A stretch of DNA of 39,863 nucleotides from a virus (IMGVR_UViG_3300033076_001356:1-39863), one strand, 5' to 3'; counted from the first letter of the stretch, positions 5,538-39,863 are shown. Numbers and translations: made by a program. The notes: generated by a model not told the origin, from the letters alone.

Positions 5538-7325
5538 ATGAATAACAATTTTATTGTACTTGATATCGAATCCGAAGCCATCGTGCCCGGCGCACCCTTA
5601 TTGCCACGTCCTGTGGGGGTGGCAATAAAAGAAATTCGTTGGATGGATTCCGCGAAAGTCCCTTATTTCTTTGACTCTGAGTACATGGCGTTTGGTCACC
5701 CGACAGAAAATACAACCGACTTCGAAACCGTTCGCAAAACACTAAAAATGTTCTGGAACTCTGACTTACATATCATCACACACAATGGAGCAACGTTCGA
5801 TATACCTGTCCTCGAGCACTGGTTCAACCTGCCAAAGATAGATCCATTGCGAGTACATGATACCCTGTTCCTTGCCTATCTTAACAACCCCCACGCGCGA
5901 AGTTTGTCGCTCAAGGATCTTGCACAGGATTTACTAGGGGTACAACCCGCCGAGCGCGACGAACTTTACGACTGGATCATGGCCAACGTACCGGAATGTC
6001 GCTCCCGTAAACAGTGCGGAGCACATATCAGCAAAGCCCCCGGCGATCTTGTCGGGCGCTACGCCGCTGCGGACGTTGAAATGACGTGGAAACTCTTTGA
6101 GCATCTTCACCCGCTCGTAGTGCCCAGGATGCAGGAGCCCTATGAGCGCGAATTGAAACTCGCCCCAATACTCGTCGACATCCAGAACCGCGGGGTGCGG
6201 GTGGATGTGGAGCAGCTGGGGAAGGATACAGTGGCCTCATTGGCCGAACTTGAGGCTCTGGACGCCGACATTCGCACTCGACTTAAATCACCCGAGTTGT
6301 CCATAGACAGTAACGACTCTCTCGTGGAAGCATTGCAGCTTAATGGGTACACAGGATTCTCGCTAACGGAGAAGGGTAAACTTTCTACTAATAAAGCATC
6401 AATGCAGAATGTATTAGCGGCAGACCCCGAACTCAAACAAGTACTGGAGAGGCGTAGTGCGCTGGCTACGCTTACCTCGACATTTATGGTGCCGTGGCTG
6501 GAGCTATGTACCGCAAATGGTGGACGACTGCATGCCGCGTACAACCAGGTGCGCAACCCGGACGGATTTGGTACCAGGACAGGTCGCCTATCTTCCACCA
6601 ACCCAAACCTGCAAAATGTTGCAAAAGAATTGATTCACGGCCTCCCCATGATGCGAAGTTTCTTATTGCCCGAGGAGGGGTGCGTCTGGGTAACGGCTGA
6701 TTTTAAGTCACAGGAGCCGCGTATTGCCGCGCATTTTGAAGACGGGGCCCTTCTCAGGGCATTTCAGGATACCCCTGAAATAGACCAGTATCTATGGATA
6801 GCCGAAGTATCCGGCGGCATTACTCGCAAGCAAGCAAAGGTAGTTTTTTTGGGGCTACTTTATGGTATGGGCAAGGATAAACTCGCCTCACAGCTCGGGG
6901 TCACCCCCGACCAAGCACAAGCTATAAAGGATAAAGTACGCGCAGCCCTACCCGACGTTGTAGCACTTGACGCGGGGTGTAAACGTCGATTCCGGATGGG
7001 GGATGCAATTCGTACCCTTGGCGGAAGGTACTACCACTGCGAGCCTCCGAGCAAAGGGAAAACCTGGGAATATAAAGCGCTTAATACGTTGATCCAGGGG
7101 TCCGCAGCCGACCAGACCAAGGAGGCACTAATTTATGTAGCTGCGCGATTACAGGAGGGGGAGCGCATACTGGGCACCGTACATGATGAAATCAGTGTTA
7201 GTTGCACTCAAGATCGCGTGGAGGCGGTTAAGCAGATCCTGCGGGAAGCCGCATCGGCGCTTCCCTGCGACGTGCCCATGCTGATGGATTTTGGTACTGG
7301 AACTACCTGGGCGGAAGCAAAATGA
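5538..7325 (+). CDS. polA: DNA polymerase family A (3'-5' exonuclease plus polymerase), Leu762 type
   Basis: Exonuclease motifs LDIES, HNGATFD, YAAAD. Polymerase motifs TGRLSSTNPNLQN, A (DFKSQEPR), B (RKQAKVVFLGLLYG), C (VHDE). Confidence 0.95.
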   Translation: MNNNFIVLDIESEAIVPGAPLLPRPVGVAIKEIRWMDSAKVPYFFDSEYMAFGHPTENTTDFETVRKTLKMFWNSDLHIITHNGATFDIPVLEHWFNLPKIDPLRVHDTLFLAYLNNPHARSLSLKDLAQDLLGVQPAERDELYDWIMANVPECRSRKQCGAHISKAPGDLVGRYAAADVEMTWKLFEHLHPLVVPRMQEPYERELKLAPILVDIQNRGVRVDVEQLGKDTVASLAELEALDADIRTRLKSPELSIDSNDSLVEALQLNGYTGFSLTEKGKLSTNKASMQNVLAADPELKQVLERRSALATLTSTFMVPWLELCTANGGRLHAAYNQVRNPDGFGTRTGRLSSTNPNLQNVAKELIHGLPMMRSFLLPEEGCVWVTADFKSQEPRIAAHFEDGALLRAFQDTPEIDQYLWIAEVSGGITRKQAKVVFLGLLYGMGKDKLASQLGVTPDQAQAIKDKVRAALPDVVALDAGCKRRFRMGDAIRTLGGRYYHCEPPSKGKTWEYKALNTLIQGSAADQTKEALIYVAARLQEGERILGTVHDEISVSCTQDRVEAVKQILREAASALPCDVPMLMDFGTGTTWAEAK

Positions 7326-7537
7326 CCACTCAAGAAGAGCGTGAGGCTTACCACGAGGCGGAGCAAAACTGTAATATGTGCAAGCATCTGGTACGCAAGC
7401 CTCACCCCAAAAGTATTGACGGGTTTTTACACGGTAGTTGCCCCCGAAAAATGTTGGCACATATAAAATTTCACCCACAAGATACTATGCACATGTCCTG
7501 TTGGGAGCCCAGAAAAAAGAAGTTGACAGTTCAGTAG
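7322..7537 (+). CDS. Small Cys/His-rich hypothetical protein
   Basis: CNMCKH...GSC...HPQD...SCWEPR, ATGA overlap with polA. Confidence 0.65.
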   Translation: MTTQEEREAYHEAEQNCNMCKHLVRKPHPKSIDGFLHGSCPRKMLAHIKFHPQDTMHMSCWEPRKKKLTVQ

Positions 7538-7551
7538 TACTGAGTTATAGT
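7523..7551 (+). promoter_or_regulatory. Strong sigma70 promoter driving the accessory gene cluster, with operator-like sites
   Basis: TTGACA-17 bp-TATAGT. The spacer holds the palindrome TCAGTA-G-TACTGA, and TAGTGGTACTAAG overlaps the -10/+1. Confidence 0.8.
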
Positions 7552-7616
7552 GGTACTAAGTTAGTGAGGCATTGGAAATGACAGCAGAGCAACAAGCGGC
7601 TTGGAGGTCGTAATTT

Positions 7617-7727
7617 ATGAGATATGAGACAGAACAGCTTATAGAAACCGTAATTGTGTGCGTAGTTGCCTTAGTAGCGATTTCGATAGCATTACATCAA
7701 TGCTTTTTATTTGTGGGGGGGGCGTAA
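7617..7727 (+). CDS. Small membrane protein (36 aa)
   Basis: MRYETEQLIETVIVCVVALVAISIALHQCFLFVGGA*, GGAGG RBS. Its TAA forms part of the attC R box. Confidence 0.6.
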   Translation: MRYETEQLIETVIVCVVALVAISIALHQCFLFVGGA

Positions 7728-7770
7728 CCATTGCGCTAACCGGCTAGTCCGGTTGAGCGCGTTGTTATGC
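7722..7770 (-). mobile_element. Integron attC-like recombination site #1 (49 bp)
   Basis: - strand: GCATAAC(R'') AACGC GCTCAACC(L'', extra C) GG A CTAG CC GGTTAGC(L') GCAATG GTTACGC(R'). Confidence 0.75.
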
Positions 7771-7800
7771 GTAAATTGTTTTTAACGGAGAGGTAAAAGC

Positions 7801-8079
7801 ATGTGTACAGTTTCAATGGTAGGCGATGGATGGAGAGATCAATTCCCGCAAAGATGGCCACAGTTTGAGCCAAATAACTTTCATATTTCGCAGGTTTCGC
7901 GCATGGAGTTTGACGCGCTAAAGCGTGAAGTAGAGGAATTGCGAGAGCTTTTGAAGGCAGCAAAAGCATTTGACAAAGCAACAGGCCAGCCAGATTGCCA
8001 CATGGATGACAAAGTGGAATTGATAAAAAAGGTTGCCGAAATGGTAGGCGTGGATTTGGGCGATGTGTTTGGTGCATAA
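7801..8079 (+). CDS. Hypothetical protein, cargo of cassette 1
   Basis: MCTVSMVGD...LLKAAKAFDKATGQPDC. It ends in GCATAAC, the exact complement of GTTATGC at 7764. Confidence 0.8.
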   Translation: MCTVSMVGDGWRDQFPQRWPQFEPNNFHISQVSRMEFDALKREVEELRELLKAAKAFDKATGQPDCHMDDKVELIKKVAEMVGVDLGDVFGA

Positions 8080-8131
8080 CACCGAATTCCGCGAATGAGT
8101 GTCGCATTAATAAGTTAAAGAGGACAGGGCT

Positions 8132-8470
8132 ATGAAAATCAAAAGCTGGACAGGTGAGATGGTGGAAGCGAGGGTTGCCATGAAAGGAACCCGACAATGT
8201 TTTAATGGCGTATGGGAAATCGTAGATGATTATGAAACTGGAATGTCCATGATGTCTTCTGGTTTGCTTGCCCATGATTTTGAAAATTTCACCATGCTCC
8301 ACTGCCCGTTCCAGGTTGGGGATGAAACCGAATTTCTATACACATTTCCAGATAATTGGATTGAGAACGGAAAGATAGAAAGTCAATTAGAAGCAGACAG
8401 ATGCAATAATTCATTCAGGGTCAGACACGCCAACCCAAACCTTCGCGCATCACCGGAGTATAGAGAATGA
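8132..8470 (+). CDS. Hypothetical protein
   Basis: ORF track, GAGGA RBS. Confidence 0.6.
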   Translation: MKIKSWTGEMVEARVAMKGTRQCFNGVWEIVDDYETGMSMMSSGLLAHDFENFTMLHCPFQVGDETEFLYTFPDNWIENGKIESQLEADRCNNSFRVRHANPNLRASPEYRE

Positions 8471-9096
8471 CAGACAACGACAAAACACACGAAGCTGATT
8501 GCGCTATATCCGTTAATTCAAGACATGGGTGTAGTTGTGACAACGACAAGGCTAGCGAATCCAAGGTGCGGATTGGATTTAACGAATGGTTTTGTTCTCT
8601 GCCCGAAGGCAGACAAGCCATATTGCGCGAAGATAAATGGATGTTAGCTAGCACCTCTTATGACGCGGGTATCGAATCCCAGCAAGCAGAGATTGATAGG
8701 CTGAAAGAGGAAAACAAAATGCTAGATGAGTTGAATGATCAGTATGCAGTCGTTGTTTGTGGTAACGATGAAGAGAAGTTAAGGGCATTGCAAATACGCG
8801 ATGAAAAAATAACGCAACTCGAACACCAGCTCGCAGAGGCGAGGAAGGAACAATGGATTAGTGTTGATAGCAGTCTTCCAGCCGAGGGTCGCAGGGTTTT
8901 ATGTTACGAAGACAACAGAGAAGGCGGGTCAATCTTTGTTGCTTGGAGGCATAAATTTAACGCGAACAAAAAGCAGGAATTTATCGCTTGGATGACTCCA
9001 ATGCGCGAAGAGTTTTGGCCTAATCCAACGCACTGGATGCCTTTCCCATCAGTATCTGATTTGCTTAACAGCGCACAGCGCGGAGGTAATGGGTGA
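8467..9096 (+). CDS. DUF551-domain protein (coiled coil plus C-terminal DUF551)
   Basis: WISVDSSLP...VL...PTHWMPFP. Confidence 0.8.
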   Translation: MTDNDKTHEADCAISVNSRHGCSCDNDKASESKVRIGFNEWFCSLPEGRQAILREDKWMLASTSYDAGIESQQAEIDRLKEENKMLDELNDQYAVVVCGNDEEKLRALQIRDEKITQLEHQLAEARKEQWISVDSSLPAEGRRVLCYEDNREGGSIFVAWRHKFNANKKQEFIAWMTPMREEFWPNPTHWMPFPSVSDLLNSAQRGGNG

Positions 9097-9389
9097 TAGA
9101 ACAAGACTTGGTTAATAAAGCGGCAAAGATTTATGAGATGCACGAACTTGGTGTCGTATTGAATCGTTGCATAATTCAGGGCATAGATGAAGCAGACCCA
9201 AAAACCGGTAAAGTAAATCGTGAAGCTATGCAGGATGAGATAGCTGATGTTATTGCACAGTGCGAAATTAACATCGATTATTTCAAGCTTGACGCGGCGA
9301 AAATAATTGAGCGTATCGAGATGAAAAAATCCCTTATGGTTGAGTGGGAAGCTATGTTCGATGAGCGTACAGCGCGGGTGAGTGAATGA
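9093..9389 (+). CDS. MazG-like NTP pyrophosphohydrolase fold protein
   Basis: EMHELGVV...GIDEADPKTGKVNRE..QDEIADVIA. The first ExxE motif is degenerate. Confidence 0.6.
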   Translation: MIEQDLVNKAAKIYEMHELGVVLNRCIIQGIDEADPKTGKVNREAMQDEIADVIAQCEINIDYFKLDAAKIIERIEMKKSLMVEWEAMFDERTARVSE

Positions 9390-9583
9390 ACAACATAGAC
9401 ATCTACACAGCCGGTACAGATAAGCTGCTAAAGCCAAGGATTAAGCCTTGCAGGTGCGATAGGTACTTATTCCCGCATCGCCGTGAAGGCAAGTGCGAAG
9501 AGCTGGAAGAAGAGGGGTTTGACGACAAATTCATGCGTGAGTGTGATGCGTTTAATGCCGAGGTTCGTAAGGTTTTTAGTTGA
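9386..9583 (+). CDS. Hypothetical protein (CxC...FPHR...C)
   Basis: ORF track, ATGA overlap. Confidence 0.65.
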   Translation: MNNIDIYTAGTDKLLKPRIKPCRCDRYLFPHRREGKCEELEEEGFDDKFMRECDAFNAEVRKVFS

Positions 9584-9590
9584 GGTAGTT

Positions 9591-9677
9591 ATGCGTAGAA
9601 GTGAAGCAGTTACGCTTAGTGTATTGGCGGCCATTACGGTGGCTTTAGTGATAACGAGTTATGTGGTGATGGTATGA
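9591..9677 (+). CDS. Small membrane protein (28 aa)
   Basis: MRRSEAVTLSVLAAITVALVITSYVVMV*, GAGGT RBS. Confidence 0.55.
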   Translation: MRRSEAVTLSVLAAITVALVITSYVVMV

Positions 9678-9874
9678 AAAAAGCGGACGATGTTGATGGC
9701 GTTGTTATGTTGCCATTTCCAAAAGAATGCGTGATTAAAAACATCTACCGCGGGGAAGCAGGCGGGTCTTGCTATGTTTATGCTAGCTTGTACTCTCCAG
9801 AAGGCGAGTTGTTAATATCAGCAACATTGGATTACATAAACGAAAGAATATTAAATGCAGGCACAGCAACATAA
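9674..9874 (+). CDS. Hypothetical protein, probable cargo of eroded cassette 3
   Basis: The N-terminus DDVDGVVM is encoded by an attC half-site. It ends in ACATAAC, complementary to GTTATGT at 9704. Confidence 0.7.
   Translation: MKKADDVDGVVMLPFPKECVIKNIYRGEAGGSCYVYASLYSPEGELLISATLDYINERILNAGTAT
9691..9710 (-). mobile_element. Degenerate attC half-site (R''-L'')
   Basis: - strand ACATAAC AACGC CATCAACA has the same AACGC spacer and extra-C L'' pattern as sites #1 and #2. No L'/R' found. Confidence 0.5.
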
Positions 9875-9916
9875 CCCCGCTCTAACCGGCTAGTCCGGTT
9901 GAGCGCGTTGTTATAC
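9869..9916 (-). mobile_element. Integron attC-like recombination site #2 (48 bp)
   Basis: - strand: GTATAAC AACGC GCTCAACC GG A CTAG CC GGTTAGA GCGGG GTTATGT. 33 bp are identical to site #1 (7736-7768 = 9882-9914). Confidence 0.75.
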
Positions 9917-9939
9917 GGCATTTTACCTACGGAGGATTT

Positions 9940-10122
9940 ATGAACGACGATAGAGAGATAAGGCTGTTTGATAGCCAGTGGATGAATATAGTTAACCATG
10001 ACCATTGCTGGGAGAGATATACAAAGGAAGAGGCTGTAAATGCTGCCGTAAAAATGGCAGAGGAAAAGATGGCAGAAAACATGGCGCTAGGTAAATGGCC
10101 ATCGCGCCGCGATGCCGTATAA
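9940..10122 (+). CDS. Hypothetical protein, cargo of cassette 2
   Basis: GGAGG RBS. It ends in GTATAAC, the exact complement of GTTATAC at 9910. Confidence 0.75.
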   Translation: MNDDREIRLFDSQWMNIVNHDHCWERYTKEEAVNAAVKMAEEKMAENMALGKWPSRRDAV

Positions 10123-10155
10123 CTAAAGACTAAGCGAATCTTGCAAGGTAAATAT

Positions 10156-10347
10156 ATGAGACAAAATACAGTGGATAGAAACGAAGCTCAGCTTAGGCGA
10201 GAAGGCATGATGTGCCACAAGCACATGAAGGTTATTAGGGGTTTTGAGCGTAGTTTTTATGGTGAAGGTGGTGGAGCAATACCAAAATGTCAGGATTGCA
10301 TCCAAGAAGACTGCGATAAAATTAACCGGAGGAGAAAAACTTTATGA
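10156..10347 (+). CDS. Small Cys-containing hypothetical protein
   Basis: MRQNTVD...CHKH...CQDC. Start probably ATG 10156. Confidence 0.55.
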   Translation: MRQNTVDRNEAQLRREGMMCHKHMKVIRGFERSFYGEGGGAIPKCQDCIQEDCDKINRRRKTL

Positions 10348-10703: not shown

Positions 10704-11026
10704 CACATATAACACTCGGTCTTTTAGCTGCGTTTATCTCGATTGCTTTCTTTAGGGAAAGCCTAGTAAGGAATGATGAGTTTATGCAATTCGCGGCATC
10801 TGTTGTAATCGGGCTTCTTGTATCATCTGCCAGCTTTGTATGCGTTGAATCGTATAGAATTGCCACAGGATACCGCGACCCTCATGTGGTGGCGCTTGAA
10901 AACACAAGGGTAGAGTGGTATTCACTCGGAAGGAACGATGCTATAGAAGCGCATGAGCGCTGGATAAAAGACGGAATGCCGCTAAGGTTAAATGGTATTG
11001 GGTATAGGTGCGAGAGGATTAAGTAA
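10700..11026 (+). CDS. Membrane protein (two N-terminal TM helices)
   Basis: Hydrophobic segments, ATGA overlap. Confidence 0.6.
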   Translation: MTHITLGLLAAFISIAFFRESLVRNDEFMQFAASVVIGLLVSSASFVCVESYRIATGYRDPHVVALENTRVEWYSLGRNDAIEAHERWIKDGMPLRLNGIGYRCERIK

Positions 11027-11027
11027 T

Positions 11028-11678
11028 ATGTCCTACACAAAACCTATAAGCCACAGCAGCCGAAAACTTTTTGCAAAATGCCCCAAGCAATGGCACGACA
11101 AATATGTACTGGGCAATAAAACCGAAACAGGGGCGGCCGCTGCGCGCGGAACAAATATCCACGAGGAAATAGAGCGCTTCTATCGCCACAGCATTCCTCT
11201 CAGTAATCCCGTTCTTATGCCCTGGCGCAGAGTGCTTGAAGCATTGACACTAAAATCCCCTGTGCCTGAAGCAGAACTTGCACGAACGTCTGAGTGGCAA
11301 ATGACAAAGTTCGATGCGCCGGAAGCATTTTACCGAGGCAAACTGGATCTGCGGTATGACGACAGCGCAGTGCATGTAATAGCCGACTGGAAAACGGGAC
11401 GTAAATACCCCGAGCATGAAGAACAGGGGCTGGATTATGTGGCGCTGTCCGATGAGCGTGATGCGTATAGGACTGAGTTTTATTATATCGATCAGCCATT
11501 GTGTGTAGTGACGTTCAACTATACCAAGGATCAGCGCGCACGACAGATCGACAAGATACAGCACGAAGTAAATAAAATACGGGCAGAAGAGAACTTCGAC
11601 CCAACTCCTGGAAATTTTGCATGCAGGTACTGCCCGTTGAGTTGGCGTAATGGCGGGAAATGTGAGGCTGCGCCGTGA
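11028..11678 (+). CDS. PD-(D/E)XK exonuclease, Cas4/RecB-like with probable Fe-S cysteines
   Basis: SHSS..LFAKCP, RGTNIHEEIE, RGKLD, ADWKTGR, CRYCP...C. Confidence 0.9.
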   Translation: MSYTKPISHSSRKLFAKCPKQWHDKYVLGNKTETGAAAARGTNIHEEIERFYRHSIPLSNPVLMPWRRVLEALTLKSPVPEAELARTSEWQMTKFDAPEAFYRGKLDLRYDDSAVHVIADWKTGRKYPEHEEQGLDYVALSDERDAYRTEFYYIDQPLCVVTFNYTKDQRARQIDKIQHEVNKIRAEENFDPTPGNFACRYCPLSWRNGGKCEAAP

Positions 11679-13742: not shown

Positions 13743-13774
13743 CTTAGTACTACTATGAGGCTGTAGTACCACTA
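13728..13774 (+). promoter_or_regulatory. Sigma70-like promoter with two operator-like sites
   Basis: TTGCAA-17 bp-TACTAT. CTTAGTACTACTA at 13743-13755 and GTAGTACCACTA at 13763-13774. Confidence 0.65.
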
Positions 13775-38579: not shown

Positions 38580-38611
38580 TAGTGGTACTAAGTACTAAAT
38601 TCGGCTATATT
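38580..38611 (+). promoter_or_regulatory. Operator-like motif and probable early promoter
   Basis: TAGTGGTACTAAG at 38580-38592 is identical to 7548-7560. A -10-like TATATT lies at 38606-38611. Confidence 0.5.
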
Positions 38612-39350: not shown

Positions 39351-39863
39351 ATGACTACGACGATATACAAATTGACAGATGAAAGTATGCGCACCTATGG
39401 CGGGTATAGCTGGGTGTTGGGAGAGTGGCGCGAAACGGACGGGGACGGGGAATTATGCGGTGCGGGATGGCTCCACGCGTATACCTGCCCCCGGTTGGCG
39501 CTATTCTTGAACCCTATACACGCCAACTTTAGCGCGCCCCGCCTATTTCGTGGGGAGGCCGACGGTAAATTCCTCGACGATAGGGGGCTGAAAGTGGGGT
39601 ATACGCGCATGCGTATAGTGGAGGAGTTGCCCGTAGAGCACATTAACCTGAGCCAGCGCGTAGCGTTCAGTATTTTATGCGCGCTCGAGGCATGTGGTAC
39701 CCCGGAATTTGTACAATGGGCCGAGGGGTGGTTGACGGGTAGGGACAGATCTTCCCGCGCTGCCTACGCCGCCGACGCTGCTGCCTACGCCGCCCGCGCT
39801 GCTGCCTACGCCGCCGACGCTGCTGCTGCCCACGCTGCCCGCGCTGCTGCCTACGCCGCCGAC
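39351..39863 (+). CDS. Hypothetical protein with Ala-rich C-terminal repeats, 5' part (continues across the window junction to base 81)
   Basis: ATG at 39351 opens 171 codons to the window end (MTTTIYKLTDESMRTYGG...CGAGWLHAY...WAEGWLTG...AAYAADAAA). It joins in frame to bases 1-81. Confidence 0.8.
   Translation, partial: MTTTIYKLTDESMRTYGGYSWVLGEWRETDGDGELCGAGWLHAYTCPRLALFLNPIHANFSAPRLFRGEADGKFLDDRGLKVGYTRMRIVEELPVEHINLSQRVAFSILCALEACGTPEFVQWAEGWLTGRDRSSRAAYAADAAAYAARAAAYAADAAAAHAARAAAYAAD
39756..39863 (+). repeat. Imperfect tandem repeat (GCTGCTGCCTACGCCGCCGAC / GCTGCCCACGCTGCCCGC units), continuing into bases 1-29
   Basis: Directly visible. 39819-39847 is identical to 1-29. Confidence 0.85.

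Follow-up and report, generated by a model that had tools for sequence, protein, structure and literature searches.

Why does a phage that encodes no integrase carry integron-type recombination sites, and why do these sites face the opposite way from the genes beside them? The question is raised by the viral record IMGVR_UViG_3300033076_001356:1-39863, a phage record of 39,863 bases that is 99% complete and to which we refer, at its full length, as the window. Two short attC-type sites lie there in a run of small plus-strand open reading frames (ORFs) between the polymerase gene (5538–7325) and the exonuclease gene (10992–11678). The locus is probably a partly decayed array of inverted integron-type cassettes, in which an integron integrase (IntI) of the host recombines the folded coding strand at AA|C (the bar marks the crossover point) and so moves a site, its leader, and the following gene together.

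Anatomy of two short attC-type sites

The two sites and their parts are located as follows.

7722–7770, minus strand (attC top strand): attC-type site 1, 49 nt, assigned from layout, fold, and covariance model
7722–7728, 7735–7741, 7751–7758, and 7764–7770, plus strand (attC bottom strand): the R', L', L'', and R'' boxes of site 1, respectively, with an extra T at 7748 and an extra G at 7755
9869–9916, minus strand (attC top strand): attC-type site 2, 48 nt, with an extra T at 9894, an extra G at 9901, and a mismatch in L' at 9881

A first-pass annotation of the window had described two 48–49 bp sites that share 33 identical bp and have a full attC layout on the minus strand. The coordinates and the repeat proved correct (the longest identical stretch is 33 nt and starts at 7736 and 9882), and both sites have R' and R'' boxes holding the conserved AAC and GTT as well as unpaired spacers of 5–6 nt. 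The layout is complete in site 1, where the unpaired T and G lie six bases apart, a spacing also seen in the qacF attC bottom strand. Site 2 has the boxes and the extra bases, but a G-to-T change at 9881 leaves its L' box incompletely paired, and its lowest-energy fold shifts the bulge to the other arm. The four variable R-box bases deviate from strict RRRY in the window sites as they do in bacterial sites.

As DNA hairpins, both sites are much stabler than shuffled sequences on either strand (z = −2.9 to −4.9). A covariance model of 23 bacterial attC top strands, run over both strands of all 39,863 bases, matched significantly only at sites 1 and 2, both on the minus strand, with scores of 37.3 and 30.7 bits (E = 1.6e-6 and 5.3e-5; next match, E = 0.72); this test is partly circular because the training sites were picked with a pattern from the window's own right arm, and the model excludes bacterial sites longer than 80 nt. 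A pattern scanner built for the analysis picked up site 1 and missed site 2.

Each of three R boxes is complemented at the far end of the next gene: GTTATGC (7764) by GCATAAC (8074), GTTATAC (9910) by GTATAAC (10117), and GTTATGT (9704) by ACATAAC (9869). The first-pass annotation had reported these pairs, and all positions were verified. These 7-mers each occur only two to three times on the plus strand of the window, and every far-end complement overlaps the TAA that terminates the next gene; four genes end on TAA followed by C, at 7727, 8079, 9874, and 10122. The two sites lie 2,147 bp apart on one strand, and the earlier statement that no integrase is encoded held up, as no match to the tyrosine recombinase family PF00589 was found in this 99% complete record.

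Polarity of the sites relative to the genes

The genes of the array lie on the plus strand and the attC top strands, as matched by the model, lie on the minus strand, so the sites are inverted relative to the genes, as had been proposed. R-box matching across a gene arises in either polarity, so the assignment relies on other evidence: the extra bases, the homology to the qacF attC, and the breakpoints described below. A site in the phage contig L001, which carries the same type of array, is 91% identical to the class 1 qacF attC, and the qacF gene lies on the strand opposite to that of the L001 phage genes. The arms of the window sites are almost identical to those of a bacterial site, L113.

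Phage loci were retrieved with the window's right-arm motif and with window proteins; 35 of the 86 scanned contain sites, and these yielded 60 distinct site-to-site units. R boxes were exact complements across the gene in 46 of the 60 (5,000 shuffles gave a mean of 10.6 and a maximum of 22) and in 11 of 14 bacterial units. The complementarity that had been called the signature of integron cassettes is thus recurrent in phages but is no proof of polarity. The longer ORF was on the attC bottom strand in 47 phage units and on the top strand in 12, with one tie, and a stop fell exactly at AA|C in 41 of the 60. In the bacterial control (28 loci, 14 units), by comparison, the top strand carried the longer ORF in 12 units, and a stop on the bottom strand coincided with AA|C in one. 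Phage and bacterial units differed in both respects (Fisher p = 9e-6 for ORF strand and 3e-5 for AA|C stops), although the longest-ORF rule is a crude measure of polarity, and many of the phage loci stem from few sample series and are not independent. Loci L119 and L125, from unpublished genomes, were excluded from all bacterial counts; only a tally of 32 in 401 includes their genomes. Arrays of this site family in Gammaproteobacteria have the normal cassette polarity and lie beside IntI.

Genes and sites also overlap. The longest ORF starts within the site in 25 of the 60 phage units, and in L053, L057, L067, L086, L092, and L095 genes begin at an in-frame start located in the hairpin of a long site. 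In the viral contig L088, one site is opposite in polarity to the other two, and mixed-polarity arrays may exist.

Units, exchange, and competing explanations

In established integron biology, the folded bottom strand is the substrate of IntI, with the crossover at AA|C. That strand is the coding strand in this phage, so the moving unit would consist of site, leader, and gene. The parts of the array can be listed in this form.

7523–7551, plus strand: predicted sigma-70-type promoter (TTGACA-17-TATAGT, 11/12), upstream of the array and on the coding strand
7617–7727, plus strand: ORF of 36 amino acids whose TAA stop provides the AA|C crossover point ahead of site 1, with no matching R box upstream
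7728–8079, plus strand: cassette A unit, 352 bp, comprising site 1, a leader with a ribosome site, gene A, and an end at AA|C
7801–8079, plus strand: gene A, 92 amino acids, PHROG 10166 (unknown function), whose relatives are ordinary phage genes
8074–8113, plus strand: R box closing cassette A, then a flank that does not fold and is only suggestive of a collapsed attC
8132–9677, plus strand: five coupled accessory ORFs without sites, among them a DUF551 protein (8467–9096) and a nucleoside triphosphate (NTP) pyrophosphohydrolase-like protein (9093–9389)
9676–9710, minus strand: half-site that retains the attC right arm and R'' but not the left arm and that encodes, in frame, the N-terminal residues of gene C
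9674–9874, plus strand: gene C, 66 amino acids, starting in the half-site and stopping at the AA|C of site 2, with matching R boxes at 9704 and 9869
9875–10122, plus strand: cassette B unit, 248 bp, comprising site 2, a leader, gene B, and an end at AA|C
9940–10122, plus strand: gene B, 60 amino acids, without a family
10117–10140, plus strand: R box that closes cassette B, with a flank that does not fold; a candidate attI-like docking end that is not significant alone

Units A and B and the remnant C each pair a single ORF with a single attC, and the R boxes at their two ends are complementary. The third R-box pair belongs to a real half-site: aligned with the right arm of a phage site, 9671–9710 scored 45, compared to 33.4 for the best of 260 control stretches. 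The 352- and 248-bp units had been put forward as mobile single-gene cassettes, but their far ends lack a foldable attC (z = −0.41 and +0.50), and excision between attC sites would consequently release 7728–9874 (2,147 bp) and not single genes. Because neither unit has a partner hairpin, we read both as past insertions, and the array is best read as decayed. The cargo consists of phage accessory genes, as the annotation had it, and arrays in other phages carry DNA methyltransferases and other accessory genes. Relatives of gene A share the same last residues, and close relatives of gene B start with residues that match an in-frame attC right arm; judged from sequence, these protein ends would fit cassettes elsewhere. 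Two flanks did not outscore the controls as site remnants: 8074–8113 as a collapsed attC scored 30.2, equal to the best of 260 controls, and 10117–10156 as a half attC scored 25.3, compared to 30.2 for the best control.

Related phages were expected to swap units at AA|C, and they do so. Contigs L094 and L095 keep the gene order of the window (57% identity for the polymerase, 52% for the exonuclease, and 60% for the helicase), have no site between polymerase and exonuclease, and carry sites of the same family farther upstream. From one R box onward the two contigs do not differ; ahead of it they have different cassettes, and each cassette brings an R box that matches. In eight comparisons of a cassette gene common to two phages, seven breaks lay no more than 3 bases from the downstream AA|C, and in none was the downstream site retained with the common gene. 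Stem pairing also appears to be maintained, as both sides changed in 8 of 15 pairs among 14 sites of 48–50 nt, a number reached by 0 of 500 shuffles, in an alignment in which site 1 of the window is slightly misaligned at its left end. A putative methyltransferase gene (L095:7420–8007 and L001:2400–2993, 81% identical over 579 nt) lies without a site between polymerase and exonuclease in L095 and inside a cassette in L001.

Arrays in related phages finish at conserved ends that do not form hairpins and that contain a variable R box matching the last site in 7 of 7 loci, a count in which two pairs duplicate each other or an earlier locus. These ends are candidate phage attI sites. They consist of AAC, five bases, and an AT-rich box, with a second R-like box about 30 bases on in some, a layout that seems to resemble the attI1 end read from L040; the window end at 10117 is only loosely like them. 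Among the ends in L140–L146, L032, L051, L071, L088, L091, and L092, a TGACG-CGTCA palindrome or a further R-like box comes next in some.

We propose that, when the phage infects a gammaproteobacterium that has IntI, a circular cassette would be recombined at a TAA|C belonging to a fixed docking end or to the R' of another site. A cut after the upstream stop codon, with the cassette in the orientation of the operon, would break no gene and would place the new gene under the promoter at 7523, whereas a textbook cassette at the same point would be antisense and silent; given the compact structure of the operon, only an inverted cassette would be read with it. Erosion of sites after insertion (the half-site at 9676, the mismatch at 9881, and the missing hairpins at 8074 and 10117) would then fix genes in place, leaving recombination of site 1 with site 2, and loss of that same 7728–9874 stretch, as the only excision possible today. 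In bacteria, IntI scored above the TIGR02249 cut-off in 4 of 5 tested bacterial genomes with this site family, and three IntI genes lie 0.5–5 kb from the retrieved bacterial locus.

Several results weigh against this explanation. In IMG/VR, genes A, B, and C have distant relatives at 15, 8, and 4 loci, respectively; the 23 loci inspected had no sites, and a model search of loci with such relatives matched 0 of 13. L025–L028 are weak matches. The 29 bacterial sites of the window's family are 56–99 nt long, longer than the 48-nt phage sites, and the exact 18-nt core of the sites has four matches in 185,579 bacterial and archaeal genomes, none in a site context and all attributable to chance, so neither search pins the host enzyme for 48-nt sites to any genome. 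In metagenomes, the same core has seven matches, two of which are true sites in inverted arrays (L030 and L032). The first-pass annotation had named excised circles and empty sites in relatives as things to look for. No excision joint was present in the contigs of run X1, the one run with this phage, which was covered as contigs only, and these contigs stop at the 33-nt repeat and lose rare forms; the 10120 flank had no match as an empty site in viral contigs, and the 8074 flank was not searched. Finally, at the upstream end of the eight common genes, the whole site was common to both phages in two comparisons, and one comparison ran into a locus edge; in five, identity started inside the right arm or at GTT, and the upstream site cores differed.

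Separately, depth in run X1 is slightly higher for the middle contig than for the flanking ones (12.7 compared to 10.1 and 9.0), which we did not count as a circle. In GenBank phages, we found no match to window positions 7600–10300, and related sites gave no matches, chance matches, or cargo only; in plasmids, the L080 site had no match.

The differing upstream cores indicate exchange by a further route besides IntI, so that sites have also been swapped by homology, slippage, or top-strand cuts that carry arms and leaders. Taken to its limit, this would mean that sites of integron origin are now mere homology patches, and that exchange of arms, leaders, and genes is driven by phage single-strand annealing proteins or by replication slippage, with no part played by IntI. 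The varying right-arm points at which identity begins fit such exchange, as does a contig from a sister run, X3, in which the window's 34-nt R'' and leader (9910–9943) stand unchanged before another gene and behind another site; sister runs also have the same site with other flanks. The L001 array comes after two genes that we take, from their sequences, to encode a RecT-like protein and an exonuclease, and IntI (TIGR02249) is absent from 29 related phage records, 6 of which are at least 90% complete. Homology exchange nevertheless leaves unexplained the R-box matches in 46 of 60 units, the AA|C stops in 41 of 60, the 3' breaks within 3 bases in 7 of 8 comparisons, and the compensation in stems. 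We regard it as unlikely to account for the arrays by itself, and it may well act alongside IntI.

It is less probable still that another tyrosine recombinase, Xer-like or phage-encoded, or a cut on the other strand moves units composed of a gene and its downstream site. In its favour, a tyrosine recombinase other than IntI is encoded about 20 kb away from the array of one phage, and one common gene starts exactly at GTT (L045/L088). Against it, true IntI genes adjoin sites of this family in bacteria, no tyrosine recombinase is encoded in the window, none of the eight comparisons showed a common gene that kept its downstream site, and beyond the last gene arrays finish at a bare AA|C. That the repeats are regulatory hairpins (terminators, RNA-processing sites, or operators) or chance is very improbable: both sites are intergenic and directly ahead of ribosome sites, and the end of site 1 coincides in part with a weak terminator-like match, but the window sites have no match in Rfam, and a regulatory hairpin needs neither a last 7 bases complementing the far end of the next gene nor likeness to bacterial attC.

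Relation to known integron systems

Phage attC clusters without integrase (CALINs) have already been published for virulent phages (Qi et al., 2023; PMC9892861), and by the definition in the portion of that paper available to us, at least two attC sites within 3 kb and no integron integrase, the window array is one of them. Like those described in that portion, it has its sites on one strand, no integrase, and phage-type cargo. The same source reports that IntI1 recombined five phage sites, the bottom strand better than the top, including PH101_attC1 and the 50-nt TJE1_attC1. TJE1_attC1 has the anatomy of the window sites, but the TJE1 array, unlike that of the window, has textbook polarity. 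In MW202573 (5 sites) and PH101 (4 sites), by contrast, annotated genes are on the attC bottom strand, as in the window, and two published CALINs with this layout lie at KR534323.1:75919–77987 and MW202573.1:2069–3738. For PH101_attC1, bottom strand and annotated coding strand coincide. The PH101 genes, unlike those of the window, do not stop on AA|C, and MW202573 has genes that start or stop inside sites. The passages of PMC9892861 consulted call PH101 typical and do not remark on inversion. P12002L gave no match with the covariance model.

Canonical cassettes (class 1 qacF and aadA7, and gammaproteobacterial integrons) share with the window the R and L boxes and the unpaired spacers of 5–6 nt (Nivina et al., 2016; PMC5027507, relevant extracts). 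Canonical attC sites also resemble the window sites in the extra G and T of the bottom strand, which are six bases apart, and in R boxes that match across the cassette. The window cassettes differ in that the gene is on the bottom strand, downstream of its own site, and stops on R' rather than near R''. Compared to a canonical integron, the promoter is at the opposite end of the array, there is no IntI, and, as had been noted earlier, the sites are short, at 48–49 nt compared to the 57–141 bp given for attC in the same extracts. These extracts also describe a backwards cassette as silent at attI, and cassette polarity is accordingly treated as fixed.

SALINs, as far as the preprint text covered here describes them, are isolated cassettes inserted by IntI at GWT, a triplet that is all IntI needs, and their sites are later lost by slippage (10.1101/2022.09.11.507474). 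A GWT triplet is present on the other strand of every TAA|C stop, and site 1 of the window, like a SALIN, comes after a gene without an upstream R box. SALINs are, however, textbook cassettes in bacterial chromosomes, whereas the window has inverted cassettes of phage genes in a phage operon, and related phages have fixed docking ends. The window array would function as an integron-type cassette array and is a phage CALIN by the published definition; by its polarity it is not composed of canonical cassettes, nor, lacking IntI, is it a complete integron.

We found no description of inverted phage cassettes in a literature search whose coverage did not extend to subscription journals, the figures and Dryad file of Qi et al., or bioRxiv supplements; the parts of 10.1101/030866 and PMC5371416 that we consulted have no bearing on inversion.

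On a broader and more doubtful reading, which we offer tentatively, phages of Gammaproteobacteria run an integrase-free integron platform, with an attI-like end, a pool of inverted cassettes with 48-nt attC sites, and IntI borrowed from the host, and inversion acts as a firewall. Chromosomal and mobile integrons store anti-phage defences, according to the accessible text of bioRxiv preprints. If the firewall is real, host anti-phage cassettes would not be expressed after entering the phage, nor phage cassettes after entering the host, and any phage gene ending in TAA-C would be one step from a cassette, a testable route to cassette making. With a large phage pool of opposite polarity, IntI may serve two insulated gene pools in each cell. 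The 48-nt sites, which are below the quoted minimum, would, if recombined, be a natural minimal IntI substrate. Cassette genesis also becomes testable, since members of the same gene family are present both with a site and without one and since sites, leaders, and gene bodies recombine as modules. The window array is a small, eroded example, and L001, L032, and L137 have fuller arrays.

The window encodes a primase, a family A polymerase, an exonuclease, a helicase, a capsid protein, a portal protein, and a terminase, and the GC content of the small-ORF run is 0.44, compared to 0.50. A TAGTAC-type palindromic motif recurs in intergenic positions (2553–2627, 7535–7563, 13745–13770, 37927, and 38590–38597) and overlaps the promoter at 7523–7551; it is possibly an operator or a phage promoter element. 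A GC-rich tandem repeat with units of 9–12 nt occupies 39746–39863 and 1–29, and its continuation across both ends of the window suggests a circularly permuted record.

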